Below are positions 1,492 through 58,750 of a stretch of DNA of 64,000 nt, in pieces. The first letter of the stretch is position 1, and every line of letters starts with the position of its first letter. This DNA is from an uncultured Ruminiclostridium sp. (lineage in GTDB: Bacteria; Bacillota; Clostridia; Oscillospirales; Ruminococcaceae), in NCBI GenBank assembly GCA_947624435.1, contig CANQKE010000009.1, forward strand, positions 1 to 64,000, written 5' to 3'. Made by a program: the position numbers and the translations under genes. The notes below the pieces were generated by a model. That model ran no database searches. It was not told where the DNA came from and was given only the letters and a program-made list of their open reading frames with translations.

Positions 1492-1556
1492 AGAACGCCC
1501 GTCGTTGATTTTTGATTGACTTTTCAGGTAAAATCAGATAAAATCAAAGGTGATAA

Positions 1557-1652
1557 GTCTGAAAATAAATCTTTCAGGATCTGAGTTTTTCGCTTTTCCG
1601 GGTACGGTCGGCAATTTTGATTCGCAAAACCGTAAAAACTCGAAAGGAGAGA
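1557..1652 (+). repeat. copy of recurrent intergenic element R1 (A-T palindrome, structured middle, AAACTCGAAAGGAGAG SD); supplies the RBS for the downstream gene
   Basis: About 85% identical to the 121-bp tandem units at 42779..43141 (GAGTTTT.CGCTTT.CCG.GTACGGTCGGCAATTTTG.TTCGCAAAACCG.A.AAAACTCGAAAGGAGAG). Confidence 0.6.
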
Positions 1653-1663
1653 TAGGCATAATT

Positions 1664-3010: not shown

Positions 3011-3224
3011 TAAGATAATTCAATTTTTGGACGCAAATAACTTGCCTGAAGCCTCTTATTATCTGATACTATATTATTAGGTAAATTTACTTAATGAACA
3101 ATTATTGCCTTGCAAATTATCGGCATTTTGCCTGCTAAAGAGCAGGCTTTGCATAAACGCACGAGCGCTGCCGAGTTTCGGTGATCGGAAGCGCACGCAA
3201 AATTCTTTAAGGAGGATCAAAAAA

Positions 3225-6200
3225 ATGAGATTCAAACGGATCATATCCGGCGTGCTTGCAGCTGTGATCGCTGCCACGGCGGTTACGGTCATGCCGCTGA
3301 CAGCTTCAGCAGATCCCGCTCCCGTCGATAAGCCGGAAGGCGTAGAAAACGTTGTAGCATCTGCTGTAGTCGGCGTTCCCACAACATTAAAGCAGTATGA
3401 TTCTGTATGGGCCGGTATCTATAGCGGACTTACTGATGAAATGTATGAGCCGGAAAGCCCGTATTATCTGAAGGTTCAATTCAGTTACGGAGAAGGAAAA
3501 ATTGAGCAGCTGGGAGGAAATTCCTGGAGCGATTTGCAGTCATGGGGATTTACCAGCTATAATTCTTGGCTTAACCTTGGTAAGGTTTATGCCGAAGGCG
3601 CATCTTTTTCCAAGACGGGAATCAGTCTGGTACCGTCTACGAGTTCGAATGCGCCGACATTCGATTTCTACATACCAGTATCGGATATAAACAAAGAGTA
3701 TGGCAGCGACAAAACTACACTTTGCATACAGGGTAATGTTCAGAATTACGCTAATCTTACAGCTACTTTGGTTTCATTCGACATTGTAAAGTTTACTCCT
3801 GCTGACCCGCCTGCTTTACAGAAGTATAAATATCCTTTCGATACCGCTGAGGGAACTTCAAATAACTGGGGTCAACCGGCAAAAACTCAGCTTTATGGCG
3901 ACGAGAGTGAAACGGTAAAGATAAAATATTTGTCCGATAGCGACTTTACGATAGTTACCGAATTCAAATCGGAAAAACAACCTGTGATGGCACTTAGCGA
4001 CGGCAGCGGAAAAGGCGATCTTAACTGGCTTCAGATTGCTCCCTCTCAGGTGATACAAGGTAAAGCATATTGGTTGAAGAGCGATGTTCTCGCAGCATGG
4101 ACTAAAGCCGGAGGCGCCGATGATTTTTCGGATTTGAAGGCGATATTTATTTGTGATCAGGGCGTTTCTCTCACTGTAACAGATACCGCGCTTTACTCCG
4201 ACGTGCCTATCGCCGTTACCGAAGTTGCAATAACCGATGCGGACGGCAAAGACACAGAGAAGCTTGCACTCACCGAAAAAGCAACCGCTTCTCTCAAAGC
4301 TACAGTTAAGCCCGAAAATACCAACCAAGAATACACCATCGAGTGGAGTTCCGATAAAGAATCCGTTGTGTCCGTTGATAAAGACGGCAAGGTGACCGCT
4401 GTTGCAGCGGGTGAAGCCGTTATAACGGCAACCGTTAAGATTGGTACGGCCGCTTCTGCCAAGGCTGCCGCAATTTCCGATACGGTCAAGGTGACTGTTT
4501 CTCACGGAAAGATGGTTCTTACCGACGCGAAAGACGCGACCTGCACCGATGGAGGCAATATTAAATATTACACCTGTGATGTGTGTGGAAAAACCTATAG
4601 CGACGAAGCCGGCACAGAAGAAGTTACCAAGGTCACTACAGACGCTCTCGGTCATAAGATGACTAAGACCGAGGCTAAGGACGCTACCTGCACCGAAGAC
4701 GGAAACGTAGAGTATTACACTTGCGAGACCTGTAAGAAGACCTTTAAGGACGAACAGGGCAAGGAAGAAATAACCGATGTTACCGTAAAAGCTCTCGGTC
4801 ACAAGATGACCAAGACCGAGGCTAAGGACGCGACCTGCACCGAGGCCGGAAACGTAGAATACTACACCTGCGAAAACTGCAAGAAGACCTTTAAGGACGA
4901 ACAGGGCAAGGAAGAAATAACCGACGTTGCTATAAAAGCTCTCGGTCATAAGATGACTTTGCACGAGGCAACAGAGGCTACTTGCGTAAAGGAAGGTAAC
5001 AAGGAATATTATTCCTGCGAAAACTGCAAGAAGAATTTTGCCGATAAAAACGGCGAGCAGGAGCTTAAGGATATTGTAGTCCCCAAGAATCCCGATAACC
5101 ACAAGAATACCAAAACTGTCGGCAAGGTCGATCCCACAGAGGAAAAAGAGGGATATACCGGAGATATCGTCTGCGATGACTGCGGTCAAACCGTTAAAAA
5201 GGGCGAGTCCGTTCCCAAGCTTGACCATAAGCATGTTATGAAGCTTGTTGAAAAGAAAGACGCGACTTGTACCGAACCCGGTAATATAGCATATTACCTT
5301 TGCACTGTGTGTGAGAAAATGTATACTAACGAAGACGGAACCGGCATTCTTTCCGCCGACGAGATCGTTATAAAAGCTCTCGGCCATAAGATGACCAAGA
5401 CCGAGGCTAAAGACGCGACCTGCACCGAGGCAGGAAACGTAGAGTATTATACCTGCGAGACCTGCAAGAAGATTTTTAAGGATTCAGAGGGTAAAGAAGA
5501 AATAACCGACGTTACCGTAGCTGCTCTCGGTCATAAGATAACTAAGATAGAGGCTAAGGCTGCTACCTGCACCGAGGCCGGAAACGTAGAATATTACATC
5601 TGTGAGACCTGCAAGAAGACCTTTAAGGATGAACAGGGCAGCGAAGAAATAACTGACGTTACCGTAGCCGCTCTCGGTCATAAGATGGTCAAGACCGAGG
5701 CTAAGGCTGCTACCTGCACCGAGACCGGAAACGTAGAGTATTACACCTGCGATACCTGCAAGAAGACCTTTAAGGATGAACAGGGCAAGGAAGAAATAAC
5801 CGATGTTACCGTAGCTGCTCTCGGTCATAAGATGGCCAAGACCGAGGCTAAGGACTCTACCTGCACCGAGGCCGGAAACGTAGAGTATTACACCTGTGAG
5901 ACCTGCAAGAAGACCTTTAAGGATGAACAGGGCAGTGAAGAAATAACCGACGTTACTGTGGCTGCTCTCGGTCATAAGATGACCAAGACCGAGGCTAAGG
6001 ACGCGACCTGCACAGAGGCTGGAAACGTAGAGTATTACACCTGCGATACCTGCAAGAAGACCTTTAAGGATGAACAGGGCAGTGAAGAAATAACCGACGT
6101 TACTGTAGCCGCTCTCGGTCATAAGATGACTAAGACCGACGCTAAGGACGCGACCTGCACCGAGGCCGGAAACGTAGAGTATTACACCTGCGATACCTGC

Positions 6201-6830
6201 AAGAAGACCTTTAAGGATGAACAGGGCAGTGAAGAAATAACCGACGTTACTGTAGCCGCTCTCGGTCATAAGATGACTAAGACCGAGGCTAAGGACGCGA
6301 CCTGCACCGAGGCCGGAAACGTAGAGTATTACACCTGCGAAAACTGCAAGAAGACCTTTAAGGACGAACAGGGCAGTGAAGAAATAACCGACGTTATCGT
6401 AGCCGCTCTCGGTCATAAGCTTACTAAGGCAGAGGCTATAGAGCCTACCGAAACCGAAGACGGCAATATAGAATATTACGTTTGCGAGGTTTGCGGTAAA
6501 CTGTATCTTGACAATGAGGGAACACAGGAAACCACCGCAGAGGAAGTAATAGTTCCTGCTATAGGCTCCGATGTTCCTCCGACAAGTGAGGACAGCACAC
6601 CCTCCGAGGACAGCACTCCTTCCGAGGACAGCACTCCCTTCGAGGATAGCACTCCCTCCGAGGATAGCACTCCTTCCGAGGATAGCACTTCTTCCGAGGA
6701 TAGCACTCCTTCAGGGGAAAGCAAGCCTTCTGACAACCCGGGAACCGGCGTTGGCTTTGGCGGGGCAGCCGCTCTTGTTGCACTTGGTGCAGCGGCAGTG
6801 GCAGTTGCATCTTTCCGCAAAAAGAAGTAA
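3225..6830 (+). CDS. giant cell-surface protein: signal peptide, N-terminal beta-rich region with Big_2-like Ig domain, about 14 tandem 49-aa His-Cys3 repeats, SEDSTP linker, C-terminal hydrophobic anchor plus RKKK
   Basis: ATG at 3225 with SD AAGGAGG 9 nt upstream; signal peptide MRFKRIISGVLAAVIAATAVTVMPLTASA; Big_2-like VTAVAAGEAVITATVKIGT; repeats ALGHKMTKTEAKDATCTEAGNVEYYTCETCKKTFKDEQGKEEITDVTVA; C-terminus GGAAALVALGAAAVAVASFRKKK. Confidence 0.85.
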   Translation: MRFKRIISGVLAAVIAATAVTVMPLTASADPAPVDKPEGVENVVASAVVGVPTTLKQYDSVWAGIYSGLTDEMYEPESPYYLKVQFSYGEGKIEQLGGNSWSDLQSWGFTSYNSWLNLGKVYAEGASFSKTGISLVPSTSSNAPTFDFYIPVSDINKEYGSDKTTLCIQGNVQNYANLTATLVSFDIVKFTPADPPALQKYKYPFDTAEGTSNNWGQPAKTQLYGDESETVKIKYLSDSDFTIVTEFKSEKQPVMALSDGSGKGDLNWLQIAPSQVIQGKAYWLKSDVLAAWTKAGGADDFSDLKAIFICDQGVSLTVTDTALYSDVPIAVTEVAITDADGKDTEKLALTEKATASLKATVKPENTNQEYTIEWSSDKESVVSVDKDGKVTAVAAGEAVITATVKIGTAASAKAAAISDTVKVTVSHGKMVLTDAKDATCTDGGNIKYYTCDVCGKTYSDEAGTEEVTKVTTDALGHKMTKTEAKDATCTEDGNVEYYTCETCKKTFKDEQGKEEITDVTVKALGHKMTKTEAKDATCTEAGNVEYYTCENCKKTFKDEQGKEEITDVAIKALGHKMTLHEATEATCVKEGNKEYYSCENCKKNFADKNGEQELKDIVVPKNPDNHKNTKTVGKVDPTEEKEGYTGDIVCDDCGQTVKKGESVPKLDHKHVMKLVEKKDATCTEPGNIAYYLCTVCEKMYTNEDGTGILSADEIVIKALGHKMTKTEAKDATCTEAGNVEYYTCETCKKIFKDSEGKEEITDVTVAALGHKITKIEAKAATCTEAGNVEYYICETCKKTFKDEQGSEEITDVTVAALGHKMVKTEAKAATCTETGNVEYYTCDTCKKTFKDEQGKEEITDVTVAALGHKMAKTEAKDSTCTEAGNVEYYTCETCKKTFKDEQGSEEITDVTVAALGHKMTKTEAKDATCTEAGNVEYYTCDTCKKTFKDEQGSEEITDVTVAALGHKMTKTDAKDATCTEAGNVEYYTCDTCKKTFKDEQGSEEITDVTVAALGHKMTKTEAKDATCTEAGNVEYYTCENCKKTFKDEQGSEEITDVIVAALGHKLTKAEAIEPTETEDGNIEYYVCEVCGKLYLDNEGTQETTAEEVIVPAIGSDVPPTSEDSTPSEDSTPSEDSTPFEDSTPSEDSTPSEDSTSSEDSTPSGESKPSDNPGTGVGFGGAAALVALGAAAVAVASFRKKK
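4644..6550 (+). repeat. tandem array of 147-bp (49-codon) coding repeats; units 5376..6404 are nearly identical at the nucleotide level
   Basis: GCTCTCGGTCATAAGATGAC recurs at 4644, 4791, 4938, 5376, 5523, 5670, 5817, 5964, 6111, 6258, 6405 (period 147 bp); one enlarged unit at 4938..5375. Confidence 0.9.
6583..6726 (+). repeat. 8 x 18-bp tandem repeat encoding the (S/F)EDSTP linker
   Basis: TCCGAGGA(C/T)AGCACTCC(C/T) repeated in tandem. Confidence 0.85.
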
Positions 6831-24639: not shown

Positions 24640-24680
24640 CTGGCGAAAAAATGTCAGCCTTTTTTCTTTGCTATTTGCCT
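24640..24680 (+). terminator. rho-independent terminator
   Basis: AAGGCTGGC..GTCAGCCTT stem followed by TTTTTTCTTTG. Confidence 0.6.
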
Positions 24681-24756
24681 TGATTTTTATCTCAAAAGAA
24701 TATATAATTGTGATAAAGTACTTTTTCGGAATGTGAGTTTTACACTTTGCTGAATA

Positions 24757-24790
24757 AAGCTCGAAAGGAGAATGCTTGCTTCGCAAGCGG
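24757..24790 (+). repeat. partial copy of R1 core (AAGCTCGAAAGGAGA-ATGCTTGCTTCGCAAGCGG) preceding the beta-mannosidase start
   Basis: Match to the R1 SD plus hairpin; 3' arm degenerate (CAT to CGG). Confidence 0.5.
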
Positions 24791-24798
24791 CAATAAAT

Positions 24799-42236: not shown

Positions 42237-42777
42237 ATTACTTAAGCTTGCAGGGCTTGAGTTTACCGTATGTCCGGCTAAAGGCAAAGAGGAGCTGCCG
42301 CTGGGTATTCTTCCGGCGGACGCGGTAGAGCTGCTGGCAAAGCAGAAAGCCGTTGAGATCGCGGCGCGTTTTCCCGGTGATACAGTCTTAGGCGCGGATA
42401 CGGTGGTAGCTTTCGGCAAACGTATTTTAGGCAAGCCGGAGGACGAGAACGCCGCTTATGAAATGCTTAAAACGCTTTCCGGCAATACGCACAGCGTATA
42501 TACCGGCGTTTGCATTATCAGTGCGGGGAATATGCAGGTGTTCCATCAAAAGACCGATGTCAGATTTTATCCGCTTTCCGATAATGAGATACTCGATTAT
42601 ATCGCTACCGGAGAGCCTATGGATAAGGCGGGAGCATACGGGATCCAGGAAAAAGGCTTTTTCATGGTCAAGGAAATTTGCGGTGACTATTACAATGTTG
42701 TAGGTTTGCCGCTGGCGGAAACGGTGCGCAGATTGAATGCGCCGGGCGATCAGGGTCAAGTTGCAGGGGGAAAATAA
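42199..42777 (+). CDS. maf: Maf-like nucleoside triphosphate pyrophosphatase
   Basis: MLILASKSPRRCELL; overlaps the ppa 3' end by 38 nt. Confidence 0.85.
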   Translation: MLILASKSPRRCELLKLAGLEFTVCPAKGKEELPLGILPADAVELLAKQKAVEIAARFPGDTVLGADTVVAFGKRILGKPEDENAAYEMLKTLSGNTHSVYTGVCIISAGNMQVFHQKTDVRFYPLSDNEILDYIATGEPMDKAGAYGIQEKGFFMVKEICGDYYNVVGLPLAETVRRLNAPGDQGQVAGGK

Positions 42778-42778
42778 G

Positions 42779-43141
42779 TCTGAAAAAATAAATTTTTCAG
42801 ACTTTGCGTTTTGCGCTTTGCTGAGTACGGTCAGCAATTTTGCTTCGCAAAACCGCACAAAAACTCGAAAGGAGAGATGCTTGCTTCGCAAGCATGGTAA
42901 GTTTGAAAAATAAATTTTTCAAACTGTGAGTTTTGCGCTTTGCCGAGTACGGTCGGCAATTTTGCTTCGCAAAACCGCACAAAAACTCGAAAGGAGAGAT
43001 GCTTGCTTCGCAAGCATGGTAAGTTTGAAAAATAAATTTTTCAAACTGTGAGTTTTGCGCTTTGCCGAGTACGGTCGGCAATTTTGCTTCGCAAAACCGC
43101 ACAAAAACTCGAAAGGAGAGATGCTTGCTTCGCAAGCATGG
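42779..43141 (+). repeat. three tandem 121-bp copies of element R1, each with perfect palindrome TTTGAAAAATAAATTTTTCAAA, a structured middle, SD GAAAGGAGAG and perfect hairpin ATGCTTGCTTCGCAAGCAT encoding mini-ORF MLASQAW
   Basis: Units at 42779-42901, 42902-43022, 43023-43141 differ at 2-5 positions; the hairpin of the last copy contains the start codon of 43138..43413. Confidence 0.9.
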
Positions 43142-43413
43142 TAATAGCTATGTATTTTGTAAGTAATCCGTTTGACAAAAAGGTTACCCAGCTTGAGGGA
43201 GATTATTTCACCGTGATAAGGGAGAAAGACGGCAAGCTGTATCTTTCCAACGGCGCTATAATAAAGCAGACCAACGAGGGGAAATATTTCGATATTTCCA
43301 CCAGCGAAAAATACGGAGCCGTGTACGAGGCGGATAACATCAACGAGATAAATTCCATAGTGGGATATGCTCCGGTAGAGGGCTCGACCGGACCGGATTA
43401 TCTCGGATTTTAA
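43138..43413 (+). CDS. small hypothetical protein (91 aa)
   Basis: ATG embedded in the R1 hairpin 3' arm (CAAGCATGG), 17 nt from the SD; the ORF track extends upstream through repeat units, which is probably spurious. Confidence 0.45.
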   Translation: MVIAMYFVSNPFDKKVTQLEGDYFTVIREKDGKLYLSNGAIIKQTNEGKYFDISTSEKYGAVYEADNINEINSIVGYAPVEGSTGPDYLGF

Positions 43414-45482: not shown

Positions 45483-45487
45483 TTTAT

Positions 45488-45545
45488 AACAATGCTTGCA
45501 AAGCAAGCGGCTCTCCTTTCAAGACTCAGCAAAGTCCGGAAAAAT
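45488..45545 (-). repeat. partial R1 copy (minus strand): A-T palindrome, GAAAGGAGAG, then GCTTGCTTTGCAAGC hairpin upstream of feoB
   Basis: Minus strand reads TCTGAAAAAATAATTTTTCCGGA..CTTGAAAGGAGAGCCGCTTGCTTTGCAAGCATTGTTATAAAATG. Confidence 0.6.
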
Positions 45546-45663
45546 TATTTTTTCAGACTTAAACCTCCGATGCCGTTTGCTTTCAGCTTATGTCAAACTA
45601 TCCCGATAGGTGAAAAAAAGAGAGCCTCCTAATTAAAGGAAGCTCTTTTAATATTAAATTATT

Positions 45664-52134: not shown

Positions 52135-52163
52135 TTGACAACGCGAAATTTTTATGATAAAAT
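52135..52163 (+). promoter_or_regulatory. promoter TTGACA-17-TAAAAT of the hydrogenase-maturation operon
   Basis: Exact hexamers; about 210-nt leader follows. Confidence 0.6.
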
Positions 52164-52278
52164 CTAATATGCGGATAAAGGTGAGGCGCGAGTGTACTTT
52201 CGCCGAACTTTCGCAGATACTGCACTGACTTCAAAGCTTACTGAGAAGAAAGGCCTGATAAAGCATACTTGTATAGTA

Positions 52279-52316
52279 CGGCTGTGCCTTTCGGTGCAGC
52301 CGTTTATTGTTTTTAT
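52279..52316 (+). terminator. terminator-like hairpin inside the hyd operon leader (candidate attenuator or riboswitch expression platform)
   Basis: CGGCTGTGCC-TTTCG-GTGCAGCCG stem then TTTATTGTTTTTAT, between the promoter and the first gene. Confidence 0.45.
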
Positions 52317-52339
52317 AAAAGCGCATGTTACGTTTTGCG

Positions 52340-52383
52340 CTTTACAAAAACCCGAAAGGAGGAATGCTTGCTTTGCAAGCATG
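52340..52383 (+). repeat. R1 core copy: CGCTTTACAAAAACCCGAAAGGAGGA-ATGCTTGCTTTGCAAGCATGG overlapping the start of the TM1266-like gene
   Basis: Hairpin 52364-52382; second ATG (52381) is the gene start; first ATG opens mini-ORF MLALQAWSLK. Confidence 0.6.
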
Positions 52384-52662
52384 GTCATTAAAATGACAGA
52401 TGCCGTTACGAGAGTAGCGCTTATCGGTATCGTAGTATCCGATAAGGAAAGCGTTTCTAAGCTCAACGAACTGCTGCACGGCAGCGCTGAGTACATCATA
52501 GGACGCATGGGTATACCCTACGAAAAGGCGGGAGTTTCGATAATAAGCGTTGCGATAGACGCGCCGCAGGACGTGATAAGCACGCTGTCCGGCAGGCTCG
52601 GCGCACTTAAAGGTGTCACGGCGAAAACCATATATCAGAAGCTGCCGGAAAATAACGATTAA
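52381..52662 (+). CDS. TM1266-like small ACT-domain protein (putative iron-only hydrogenase system regulator)
   Basis: 93 aa MVIKMTDAVTRVALIGIVVSDKESVSKLNELLH.. immediately upstream of hydG-hydF. Confidence 0.65.
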   Translation: MVIKMTDAVTRVALIGIVVSDKESVSKLNELLHGSAEYIIGRMGIPYEKAGVSIISVAIDAPQDVISTLSGRLGALKGVTAKTIYQKLPENND

Positions 52663-57724: not shown

Positions 57725-58708
57725 TTATTCTCTGTTATAGGAAAAGCCCCAGTCGGTGCGGCATTTTTCCATTATCTTCATGGTGGCTTTTGTATGCCAA
57801 AGCGGGTTGAGGTCGCTTTCCTTTAAGCCTTTTTCAAGGCAGCTCATGACGTGAGCTACTTCAAACTCGTAACCGTTGCAGGGGTGGGGATTGTTGAATT
57901 CTTCGACGATATTCCCGTCATCGTCGTACAACAGTACCCGTCCGGTGCAGAAAAACCATTCCGGAAAGCGTATACTGCCCTTTGTGCCGATTATATAGGC
58001 GGGATTGCAGTTGTCCATGTTGAACGCCGCGCACAGATCGGCATAGCTGTTTTCGTATCTTAACATTATAGACGCGTCAAAGTCTACGTCGCTTTTGCCG
58101 ATAACGCAGTTGCTTATTATTTCTTTCGGCTGATAACCCAAAAATTCGCAGGCGAAGGTGATAGGATACACGCCGATATCTAAAAGCGCGCCGCCGCCTA
58201 AGTCTTTTCTGAAAAGGCGGTCGTTCTCATCATAACGGCACATCGAGGTGAGATCGGCCTTGACGGCGTGCACCTCTCCGATTTTACCGGAAGACACCCA
58301 TTCCTTTGCTTTACGAAACGCCGGGAGCATTTTCATCCACATAGCTTCCATAAAGAACAGGTCTTTTTCCTTTGCGATAGCGATAAGCTCGTCTAACTGC
58401 GCCGAGTTTAGCGTTATCGTTTTTTCACACAACACATTCTTTCCGGCTAGCAGGCACATTTTTGCGTTCTCGTAGTGCTGTGCCATAGGGGAGGCGATAT
58501 ATATAACGTCCACGTTTTCGTCCTCGGCTAGCTGCCGATAGCTGCCGTAGCATTTCTCAGCGTTGTATTTTTCACCGAACGCTTTTGCTTTTTCTTCGGT
58601 GCGGGAGGCTGCCGCATACAGCTTTGCCCCGTCTGTATAATTTATCGCTTTGGCAAAGGTCTCCGCTATTTTTCCGGTCGCCATTATGCCCCAATTGCAG
58701 ATGCTCAT
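57725..58708 (-). CDS. Gfo/Idh/MocA-family NAD(P)-dependent oxidoreductase
   Basis: Rossmann start ICNWGIMATGKIAETF; EKP-type motif LCEKTITL. Confidence 0.85.
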   Translation of the reverse strand: MSICNWGIMATGKIAETFAKAINYTDGAKLYAAASRTEEKAKAFGEKYNAEKCYGSYRQLAEDENVDVIYIASPMAQHYENAKMCLLAGKNVLCEKTITLNSAQLDELIAIAKEKDLFFMEAMWMKMLPAFRKAKEWVSSGKIGEVHAVKADLTSMCRYDENDRLFRKDLGGGALLDIGVYPITFACEFLGYQPKEIISNCVIGKSDVDFDASIMLRYENSYADLCAAFNMDNCNPAYIIGTKGSIRFPEWFFCTGRVLLYDDDGNIVEEFNNPHPCNGYEFEVAHVMSCLEKGLKESDLNPLWHTKATMKIMEKCRTDWGFSYNRE

Positions 58709-58712
58709 TTTT

Positions 58713-58750
58713 AATACCGTGCTTGCAAAGCAAGCACCTCTCCTTCGTAT
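58713..58750 (-). repeat. R1 core copy (minus strand): GAAGGAGAG-GTGCTTGCTTTGCAAGCAC upstream of the oxidoreductase start
   Basis: Compensatory change keeps the hairpin (ATG..CAT becomes GTG..CAC). Confidence 0.6.

Follow-up and report, generated by a model that had tools for sequence, protein, structure and literature searches.

The stretch of DNA analysed here, 64,000 nucleotides of a contig from an uncultured Ruminiclostridium sp. (hereafter the window), carries a repeat of about 120 bp that is copied to new sites, those sites being the few bases between a resident Shine-Dalgarno sequence (SD) and the ATG of a gene, often at TAA or AAA. We consider it probable that this repeat is a lineage-specific, non-coding, modular mobile element, which lands in SD-ATG spacers and replaces the ribosome-binding site (RBS) of the gene it enters. 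Its insertion polymorphism is near certain, and tandem arrays such as the one at 42775-43149 result from repeated hits on the same kind of site. In the following, locus labels of the form L0xx denote contigs carrying copies, relatives or scan matches.

Copies in the window and element-free relatives

The tandem triplication described in the original prediction is real: Tandem Repeats Finder returns 3.0 copies with 97% matches at 42775-43144, with a period of 122 bp and not the 121 bp given earlier, and together with the right-hand spacer up to the start codon the array extends over 42775-43149. The period is not a multiple of 3, and the unit, about 120 bp long and non-coding, is without a conserved open reading frame (ORF). 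The hairpin RTGCTTGCTTYGCAAGCAY occurs seven times in the window (plus strand at 24772, 42877, 42999, 43121 and 52364; minus strand at 45510 and 58737) as compared with 0.01 occurrences expected from shuffled sequences, and a hairpin-less copy at 1554-1653 was recovered by a profile search with one unit (nhmmer, E=5e-18). The window total thereby comes to six sites, the array and five dispersed copies; a sixth dispersed site listed before, at 43138, is the array itself. All of these copies lie directly 5' of a gene and share its orientation. The exact 23-mer CGCACAAAAACTCGAAAGGAGAG is confined to the array, the dispersed copies being diverged or truncated.

Evidence for insertion comes from relatives in which the same sites are empty. 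At the junction between the Maf stop codon and the gene for an 87-aa protein, an identical 87-aa protein is encoded by CANRII (the metagenome-assembled genome, MAG, nearest to the window organism) and by an independent ENA contig, both of which read GCAGGGGGAAGATAATT-ATG, element-free. In this empty allele (GGGGGAAGATAATT-ATG) the same SD stands 7 nt from the ATG and the Maf stop is 2 nt from it; the window has the same SD-like GGGGGAA, now orphaned, and the same TAA (42766-42777 on the plus strand, with the stop at 42775-42777), with 3 x 122 bp between them and the ATG. Four more distant relatives are also without the element: those at 85%, 75% and 66% protein identity have gaps of 15-51 nt with AAGGAG 6-8 nt before the ATG, and searches with a covariance model (CM) found no element in the 12-20 kb syntenic loci of these relatives. 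The filled allele is present in a second assembly as well. In the short-read assembly L030 the array has two copies and not three, probably through collapse of identical units, and its reading as copy-number variation was rejected because identical 122-bp repeats collapse in short-read assemblies.

The same comparison can be made at two other loci of the window. Before feoB, the element-free CANQIB and CANQED read ATCGGAGGGTGGACG-ATG and ACGGAGGGCTGAAA-ATG (CGGAGGG, 6 nt, ATG), and the window and CANRII retain CATCGGAGG (CGGAGG) with the element between that SD and the ATG. Before the hyd operon, CANQIB has the terminator, GGGTGAAAAG and the ATG (MSDAGTRVALIG) with no element; in the window, the terminator and the ATG of MTDAVTRVALIG are separated by a degraded element. 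Native spacing between SD and ATG in the element-free relatives at the three window loci is 4-8 nt, and at all three loci compared (3/3) the filled site is the derived state, the element having inserted between the resident SD and the ATG. Exact-protein look-ups found no contig for the gene at 1664 and just the same filled allele for the oxidoreductase gene at 58708.

Across the family, an orphaned SD-like core (GGAG, GAGG, AGGA, GGGGG or GGTGA) lies no more than 16 nt from the left end of the element in 16 of 23 independent copies, against a background of 11.4% in the same sequences (binomial P ~1e-10). Sequence identity between non-orthologous sites points to recent copying: array copies two and three (T2 and T3) do not differ, and both match L027 at 119/119 positions, L027 precedes a different gene in CANRII, and the window and CANRII genomes differ in flanking non-coding DNA despite these 119/119 copies. 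The first array copy (T1) differs from T2/T3 at ~7 positions, two compensated pairs among them, and because it belongs to another subfamily the array is composite. At least two insertion events took place at the same initiation region, the later one or ones landing a few bases after the hairpin P4 (described below) of the earlier copy. As for movement between species, the prophage-like L016:1-8000 (MAG CANQTP) holds three copies in 8 kb, one of them before the gene for the terminase large subunit (terL; phrog_2, E=1e-31) and the others at two more gene junctions, and nearly the same terL copy is found in five MAG species (loci L016, L022, L004, L005 and L025); a prophage common to these five MAGs is a possible route.

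The known distribution of the family is narrow. A scan of one genome each for 185,579 species with the pattern GAAAGGAG-N3-4-GCTTGCTTYGCAAGC yielded 27 loci, all of them in 10 uncultured Clostridia/'Ruminiclostridium' MAGs from one rabbit-gut ('Lapin') project; eight pattern-bearing loci lie in CANRII and four in the 64-kb window. Many MAG copies lie at contig ends, and copy numbers are therefore under-counted. Rfam gave nothing meaningful, either for the whole window at the gathering threshold or for the array at E<=10, a pattern scan of the IMG/VR viral contigs gave 0 matches, and blastn against phage and plasmid records gave no match to the full unit. The 27 matches from a scan of JGI metagenomes with a relaxed pattern were discarded, none being of this family; they are a high-GC REP-like repeat and chance matches. 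JGI contigs L039-L063 (GC 0.66-0.70) carry this unrelated, highly repeated palindrome, AAGGAGACCGCTTGCTCCGCAAGCGG, which is sometimes paired with an inverted copy and has the look of a REP-type sequence.

Anatomy of the unit, start codons and downstream genes

Five modules follow one another in the unit: a hairpin (P0), a three-way junction (P1-P3), an extended SD, a second hairpin (P4) and about 10 A/U-rich nt before the ATG. In T3 (43020-43149, plus strand, including the A/U-rich spacer to the start codon; CM score 154.6 bits) P0 is an A/T-rich hairpin of 11-12 bp, AGTTTGAAAAAT/ATTTTTCAAACT, at 43022-43047, with a folding energy of ~-9 kcal/mol. The junction occupies 43050-43110, with P1 formed by 43050-43060 and 43099-43110, P2 by 43062-43081 and P3 by 43082-43096, and is followed by the extended SD, GAAAGGAG(A/G), at 43111-43120. 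P4, ATGCTTGC-TTC-GCAAGCAT, lies at 43121-43139 between the SD and the start codon, and the A/U-rich spacer GGTAATAGCT with the start codon (ATG at 43150) at 43140-43152 leads into the 87-aa ORF 43150-43413. Formerly taken for an 8-4-8 structure, P4 has 8 bp and a 3-nt loop (UUC or UUU), and the idea of a UUCG tetraloop was rejected because the loop is only 3 nt long. T2 (42898-43019, plus strand) belongs to subfamily 'b' and is identical to T3; T1 (42775-42897, plus strand) belongs to subfamily 'a', with P0 GTCTG/CAGAC and P2 TTGCTGA/TCAGCAA. P3 and P4 have UUGC-UUC-GCAA in common. P0 carries stop codons in two of the three frames, and the stop of a terS-like prophage ORF falls in its loop.

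The fold is supported by covariation. A CM was built from 11 copies and 26 copies from 10 genomes were aligned to it; run over 240 kb (window and loci), the CM gave 37 good sites. In this alignment, which was fitted to the model, standard pairs make up 93.9% of cells, as against 84.1% after shuffling and 30-52% with partners slid by 1-3 columns, and 30 of 41 pairs have changes on both sides versus 9.7 in shuffles. Across copies, 8 of the 9 pairs of P0 have changed on both sides; P2 is 99% paired with 4 of 7 pairs compensated, P3 is 98% paired and P1 83%. The covariation in P2 was also recovered independently by RNAalifold on a plain MAFFT alignment. An alternative pairing, GTTTTGCG/CGCAAAAC, favoured by the single-sequence minimum-energy fold, has no covariation and was rejected. 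The 6-bp core of P4 is invariant, its apparent double changes stemming only from the hairpin-less copy forced into the alignment, and its outer position is a G·U (G·T) pair in 9/26 copies; the invariance could reflect recognition by a protein, the youth of the copies or the search pattern. The folding energy of P4 is -9.2 kcal/mol, and its predicted formation probability averages 0.86 over 31 natural contexts. The element SD is likewise invariant in copies that the CM found independently of the pattern, except for GAAGGAG at the copy before the Gfo/Idh/MocA gene.

Several minor features of the unit may be recorded here. On the minus strand, P4 together with the complement of the SD after it (CTCTCCTTTC...) has a terminator-like score at 42877-42895, 42999-43017 and 43121-43139, and on the plus strand P2 followed by TTTTGCTT also scores terminator-like. 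In the internal array copies (42898-42935 and 43020-43057) a UUG situated 9 nt beyond the P4 core of the unit before it opens an 8-codon ORF, MKNKFFKL, through P0, which is probably incidental. A CsrA-type GGA-in-loop site, sigma-54 and sigma-70 promoters within the unit, an integron attC site and a hammerhead were dismissed by eye, their defining motifs being absent or not conserved.

The modules are separable, as the dispersed copies of the window illustrate. The copy at 1554-1663 (plus strand, CM 76 bits) has P0, the three-way junction and an SD at 1642-1649, with GGTGA on its left flank; P4 is almost wholly deleted before ATG 1664, and the loss of the hairpin reported for this gene is thus confirmed. 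At 24709-24798 (plus strand, CM 53 bits) a truncated copy with a degenerate P0, a partial P1, an SD at 24763-24770 and a P4 core at 24774-24788 precedes ATG 24799 of a beta-mannosidase-like gene. The feoB copy (45483-45568, minus strand; ATG 45482) has lost the three-way junction, and the resident SD GGAGG (45568-45564) is followed there by P0 (45560-45532), the element SD (45520-45513) and the P4 core (45508-45494). The hyd-operon copy (52332-52392, plus strand) is reduced to a remnant hairpin, GTTTTGCG..CAAAAAC, the SD (52354-52362) and P4 (52364-52382), directly upstream of a TM1266-like gene (ATG 52393). A minimal copy at 58709-58746 (minus strand), preceding a Gfo/Idh/MocA oxidoreductase gene (ATG 58708), consists of the SD GAAGGAGAG (58746-58738) and P4, GTGCTTGC-TTT-GCAAGCAC (58737-58719), whose outer pair is altered on each side (GTGC...GCAC), in agreement with the earlier observation that both arms had changed together. 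In the family as a whole, the junction is absent from 52332-52392, 58709-58746, L019 and L023, P0 is absent from some copies and replaced by an unrelated hairpin in others (L014 and L016:7882), and P4 is absent from two, the window copy at 1554-1663 and L016:7882-7991. Because the element SD lies at the canonical 9 nt from the ATG in the P4-less L016:7882, we take it to be a working SD. Promoter-like sites directly upstream of two window copies (1516-1544 and 24680-24708) end 7-10 nt before P0, and P0 would therefore be the 5'-terminal hairpin at those two loci.

The placement of the element is strict. Leaving aside internal array copies, all of the 33 pattern matches have a gene-opening ATG 6-13 nt (mode 12) after the hairpin core, and the pattern did not demand an ATG. 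At some loci the start codon had been placed in the CATGG of the 3' arm of the hairpin. The real start, however, is the ATG 10-13 nt after the hairpin core: element-free orthologues begin at the downstream ATGs at 43150 and 52393 (MYFVS/MLFV at 43150), and in L023 the ATG of the 3' arm is out of frame with the conserved N-terminus MTHDILLAGFG. Public gene calls at 43138-43413 and in L030 begin the 87-aa gene at the hairpin ATG, giving a 91-aa product.

The genes behind the element are diverse. They encode type II dehydroquinase (aroQ), threonine synthase (thrC), TyrRS (tyrS), PRAI, the POR gamma subunit, YhbY, dTDP-glucose dehydratase, a germination lipoprotein-like protein, FeoB, a beta-mannosidase-like and a TM1266-like protein, the Gfo/Idh oxidoreductase, a prophage terminase large subunit and an oxidoreductase of the FAD_binding_2 family, read here as L-aspartate oxidase (NadB). 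Because they are functionally unrelated, a metabolic regulon and an iron or Fe-S link are ruled out, and the shared iron or Fe-S regulatory input once considered conceivable is further weakened by the elements being recent insertions absent from close relatives. A Fur-box-like look of the spacer (TGATAAT...) was dropped, since the genes are unrelated and just a half-site recurs. The supposed resemblance of the A/T palindrome to a CodY box did not hold either, as there is no match within 3 mismatches.

Proposed working of the element and competing explanations

Insertion would move the resident SD more than 100 nt away, so that initiation at the downstream gene would come to depend on the element's own SD. 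The linear distance from this SD to the ATG is 30-31 nt (GGAG + 2 + 19 + 10), and 11-12 nt with P4 folded. Folding of P4 would thus loop out the intervening segment and bring the element SD within reach, forming a 'split' RBS of the kind known from T4 genes 25 and 38, a mechanism we infer from the predicted fold and from this analogy. P0 and the junction would form a compact fold that stops upstream reading frames and may insulate or stabilise the mRNA, and it is plausible, by analogy with the STAB-SD concept (PMC4113751), that both of them and the very strong SD take part in mRNA protection. Old copies would shed P0 and the junction but retain the SD, P4 and spacer, which the host gene needs. 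A split RBS would explain why the hyd, feoB and Gfo copies, which are shared and older, keep these three parts after the loss of P0 and the junction, and why P4 is otherwise lost solely by near-complete deletion. Among the options in the original prediction, the evidence favours the mobile MITE/REP-like unit with its own RBS, on the grounds of filled and empty sites, identical non-orthologous copies and stranded SDs, but it is no classical MITE, as terminal inverted repeats are lacking. The translational control hairpin persists in changed form, since it does not sequester the real start codon and most likely loops out.

Several points weigh against a mobile, RBS-replacing repeat. No terminal inverted repeats were found in the unit and its flanks, all inverted repeats there being the internal hairpins P0, P1, P2 and P4, and no candidate transposase or partner gene in 308 kb around the known copies. 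In the same 308 kb element copies account for all P0-like palindromes and for 43 of 44 P4-like cores, the exception in L036 being likely due to chance. The left flank is usually TAA or AAA and many right ends read RTAA, which would be compatible with a 3-bp duplication, but a clean target duplication is not seen in the one close pair (empty GATAA-TT-ATG versus filled ATAA|...GGTAA|TAGCT-ATG). A TAA target alone does not explain the strict placement next to ATG, which may be due to specific site recognition, to microhomology-anchored recombination between initiation regions or to strong selection; recombination or gene conversion between initiation regions may be the route of spread itself, and unrelated loci do have left flanks in common (CGGAGGTT(T)AAGTCTG and GAGGTAAAGTTTG). 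Most copies were found by a pattern composed of SD and P4, which inflates both the invariance of P4 and the link to gene starts; just five copies were found independently of P4, three with the same core and two without P4. Every related sequence comes from short-read MAGs, and covariation does not separate an RNA fold from a fold of single-stranded DNA. As to the split RBS, the folded spacing of 11-12 nt exceeds the native 4-8 nt of the relatives, and predicted accessibility is only moderate (SD 0.55, AUG region 0.58).

A bolder version of the mobile-repeat reading, which we put forward tentatively as a minority possibility, is a new kind of mobile DNA that homes to translation-initiation regions and swaps the resident RBS for a portable split one, with the invariant P4 recognised by a putative dedicated protein. 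What is recognised would be the context of SD, spacer and ATG, possibly in folded single-stranded or RNA-linked form. Such homing fits the array, whose second and third copies landed directly behind P4, at a point where folding again brings an SD beside the target, and the putative P4-binding protein might also tune the translation of every element-bearing gene.

Two further explanations were weighed. In one, which seems to us unlikely, P4 and perhaps P3 would be bound by a clade-specific RNA-binding protein that co-regulates the translation or stability of every element-bearing mRNA, mobility just distributing the operator. The P4 core is indeed unchanged between species that differ at 3-4 of 7 pairs in their P2 stems, P4 keeps a fixed distance from the AUG, and degraded copies keep SD and P4; yet the search pattern accounts for part of this invariance, the genes have no function in common, close relatives use the same genes element-free, and two copies without P4 keep the rest, the P4-binding protein itself being hypothetical. 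In the other, the unit would be a host-selected leader rather than a selfish element, an mRNA-stabilising or insulating 5' untranslated region or intercistronic module in which a 5' hairpin and a STAB-SD-like SD block RNase J1, and it would have spread by microhomology-mediated recombination anchored on SD and ATG; we hold this proposal, too, to be unlikely. The element SD matches the STAB-SD sequence, which we take to be GAAAGGAGG and which Agaisse and Lereclus are said to have given in this form in 1996. The promoter-like sites ending 7-10 nt before P0 at two loci are in line with a protective 5' hairpin, and left flanks common to unrelated loci are what crossovers within the SD would produce. 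Tandem triplication and 100% identical copies in different genomes, however, resemble proliferation more than locus-by-locus selection, and the element SD evidently initiates translation where P4 is absent.

The remaining alternatives appear far less probable. The transcription-factor option of the original prediction, taken here as an 8-3-8 palindrome (TGCTTGC-N3-GCAAGCA) bound by a dimeric factor controlling iron or Fe-S genes, has a perfect palindrome and a conserved sequence in its favour, but is very improbable: the palindrome always lies between SD and ATG and not at promoters, also within operons and where an upstream stop is only 2 nt away, it is oriented with the gene, its outer pair is G·U (G·T) in 9 of the 26 aligned copies, and the covarying neighbouring stems point to a folded single strand. 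The associated genes, moreover, are unrelated, and the insertions are recent and absent from close relatives. Equally remote is a leader peptide or upstream ORF, MLASQAW or MLALQAWSLK, whose translation would melt the hairpin and be coupled to initiation at the start further downstream. An SD does precede the ORF, and the stop of the ORF coincides in part with the real ATG or directly adjoins it in some copies (ATGA at 52390-52396), but only 1-2 nt separate the AUG or GUG from the SD, a distance too short for initiation directed by an SD, for which the optimum spacing is 5-9 nt. Class-2 copies have no NTG in the 5' arm and the feoB copy has no start codon there either, the frame at 24772 enters the gene, and neither the length nor the sequence of the mini-ORF, which had been suggested as a leader peptide, is conserved. 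Hardly credible, finally, is a riboswitch or ribozyme in which the three-way junction would bind a ligand or cleave itself. Although a covarying three-way junction in 5' leaders invites the idea, Rfam gives no match even at E<=10, the junction is almost without conserved unpaired nucleotides, no alternative fold takes in the SD, the junction is dispensable in many copies, and the genes are unrelated.

Known systems, neighbouring observations and significance

As a genomic object, the element is closest to the pneumococcal BOX and the mycobacterial MIRU repeats and is a member of neither. With BOX, RUP and SPRITE it shares a short, non-coding, modular and intergenic character, variable modules and tandem expansion (PMC3049150). 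BOX elements also have a predicted stable RNA fold, differ in their insertions between close relatives, are transcribed with neighbouring genes, and by their modules (boxA-boxB(n)-boxC) raise or lower downstream gene expression (PMC3049150). However, BOX and RUP have terminal inverted repeats and target-site duplications, neither of which was found in this element, and BOX is not tied to the SD-ATG spacer, has no good SD and shows no sequence relationship. MIRUs are tandem units of 40-100 bp located within operons between cistrons, with filled and empty sites (Supply et al. 1997, in PMC3184786); they are transcribed in polycistronic mRNA, and the unit ends overlap the flanking stop and start signals (PMC3184786). 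MIRUs differ in being GC-rich, in being read as small coupled ORFs and in lacking an SD-hairpin module or three-way junction.

The closest parallel for the proposed mechanism is found in a phage. In T4 genes 38 and 25 a hairpin between SD and AUG shortens their distance (22 to 5 nt and 27 to 11 nt), and translation drops when the hairpin is destabilised (PMC3014915). The predicted fold of the element would resemble this arrangement, with a linear SD too far from the AUG and an intervening stable hairpin, here reducing 30-31 to 11-12 nt; the T4 sites, however, are single and vertically inherited, whereas here the arrangement is packaged in a repeat copied to many genes, and the function of P4 is inferred. 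The STAB-SD of Bacillus thuringiensis cry3A is a very strong SD-like stabiliser in the leader that can hold a 30S subunit and block 5'-3' decay (PMC4113751); it lies ~125 nt from the start codon and is non-initiating, whereas the element SD is evidently the initiating one.

With palindrome-associated elements derived from IS200/IS605 and with REP/BIME the element shares the lack of terminal inverted repeats, subterminal hairpins near both ends, conserved hairpins suited to protein recognition on single-stranded DNA, and no obvious target duplication. It differs in that neither a TnpA or RAYT gene nor a longer element sharing its ends turned up in the 308 kb around copies. The IS200/IS605 family orients by replication strand, whereas the orientation of the element follows genes; REPs are imperfect palindromes of 20-40 nt that mostly lie after genes and are associated with a RAYT gene, whereas the element has ~120 nt, four or five stems and a position always 5' of the start codon. 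The TAACTGA direct repeats of marine Beggiatoaceae are similarly intergenic, lie a few nt before the start codons of unrelated genes and occur in restricted lineages (PMC4679880), but they are unstructured, SD-less heptamer arrays, whereas the element is a structured ~120-nt unit that carries an SD and bears signs of insertion. We found no description of a repeat combining these properties, nor of a family confined to the spacer between RBS and start codon that brings a replacement site.

Two neighbouring observations are of separate interest. At 52137-52335 (also in L012 and L065:18930-19090), 5' of the operon of the TM1266-like gene, hydG and hydF, a promoter-like TTGACA-17-TAAAAT recognised by eye is followed by a leader of ~150 nt that ends in a strong intrinsic terminator, GGCTGTGCC-TTTC-GGTGCAGCC with a T-run. 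This leader is conserved in two relatives, has no Rfam match, and is a candidate attenuator or riboswitch for the hydrogenase maturation genes. Within ORF 3105-6830 (1241 aa), 147-bp (49-codon) tandem repeats at 4644-6438 reach up to 7.2 copies with 91% identity; the product is probably a repetitive surface protein whose repeat unit contains Cys.

For practical work on these genomes, it matters that gene callers misplace starts at copies of the element and that short-read assemblies break or collapse there. For the biology of the lineage, the reading favoured here, if true, would mean that a selfish repeat can be tolerated, or even be of use, inside operons and before essential genes such as tyrS. 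It would also provide a natural, portable 'split' ribosome-binding site, a design so far known from two T4 genes, and the translation signals of perhaps tens of genes per genome would have been rewired on species-level timescales.

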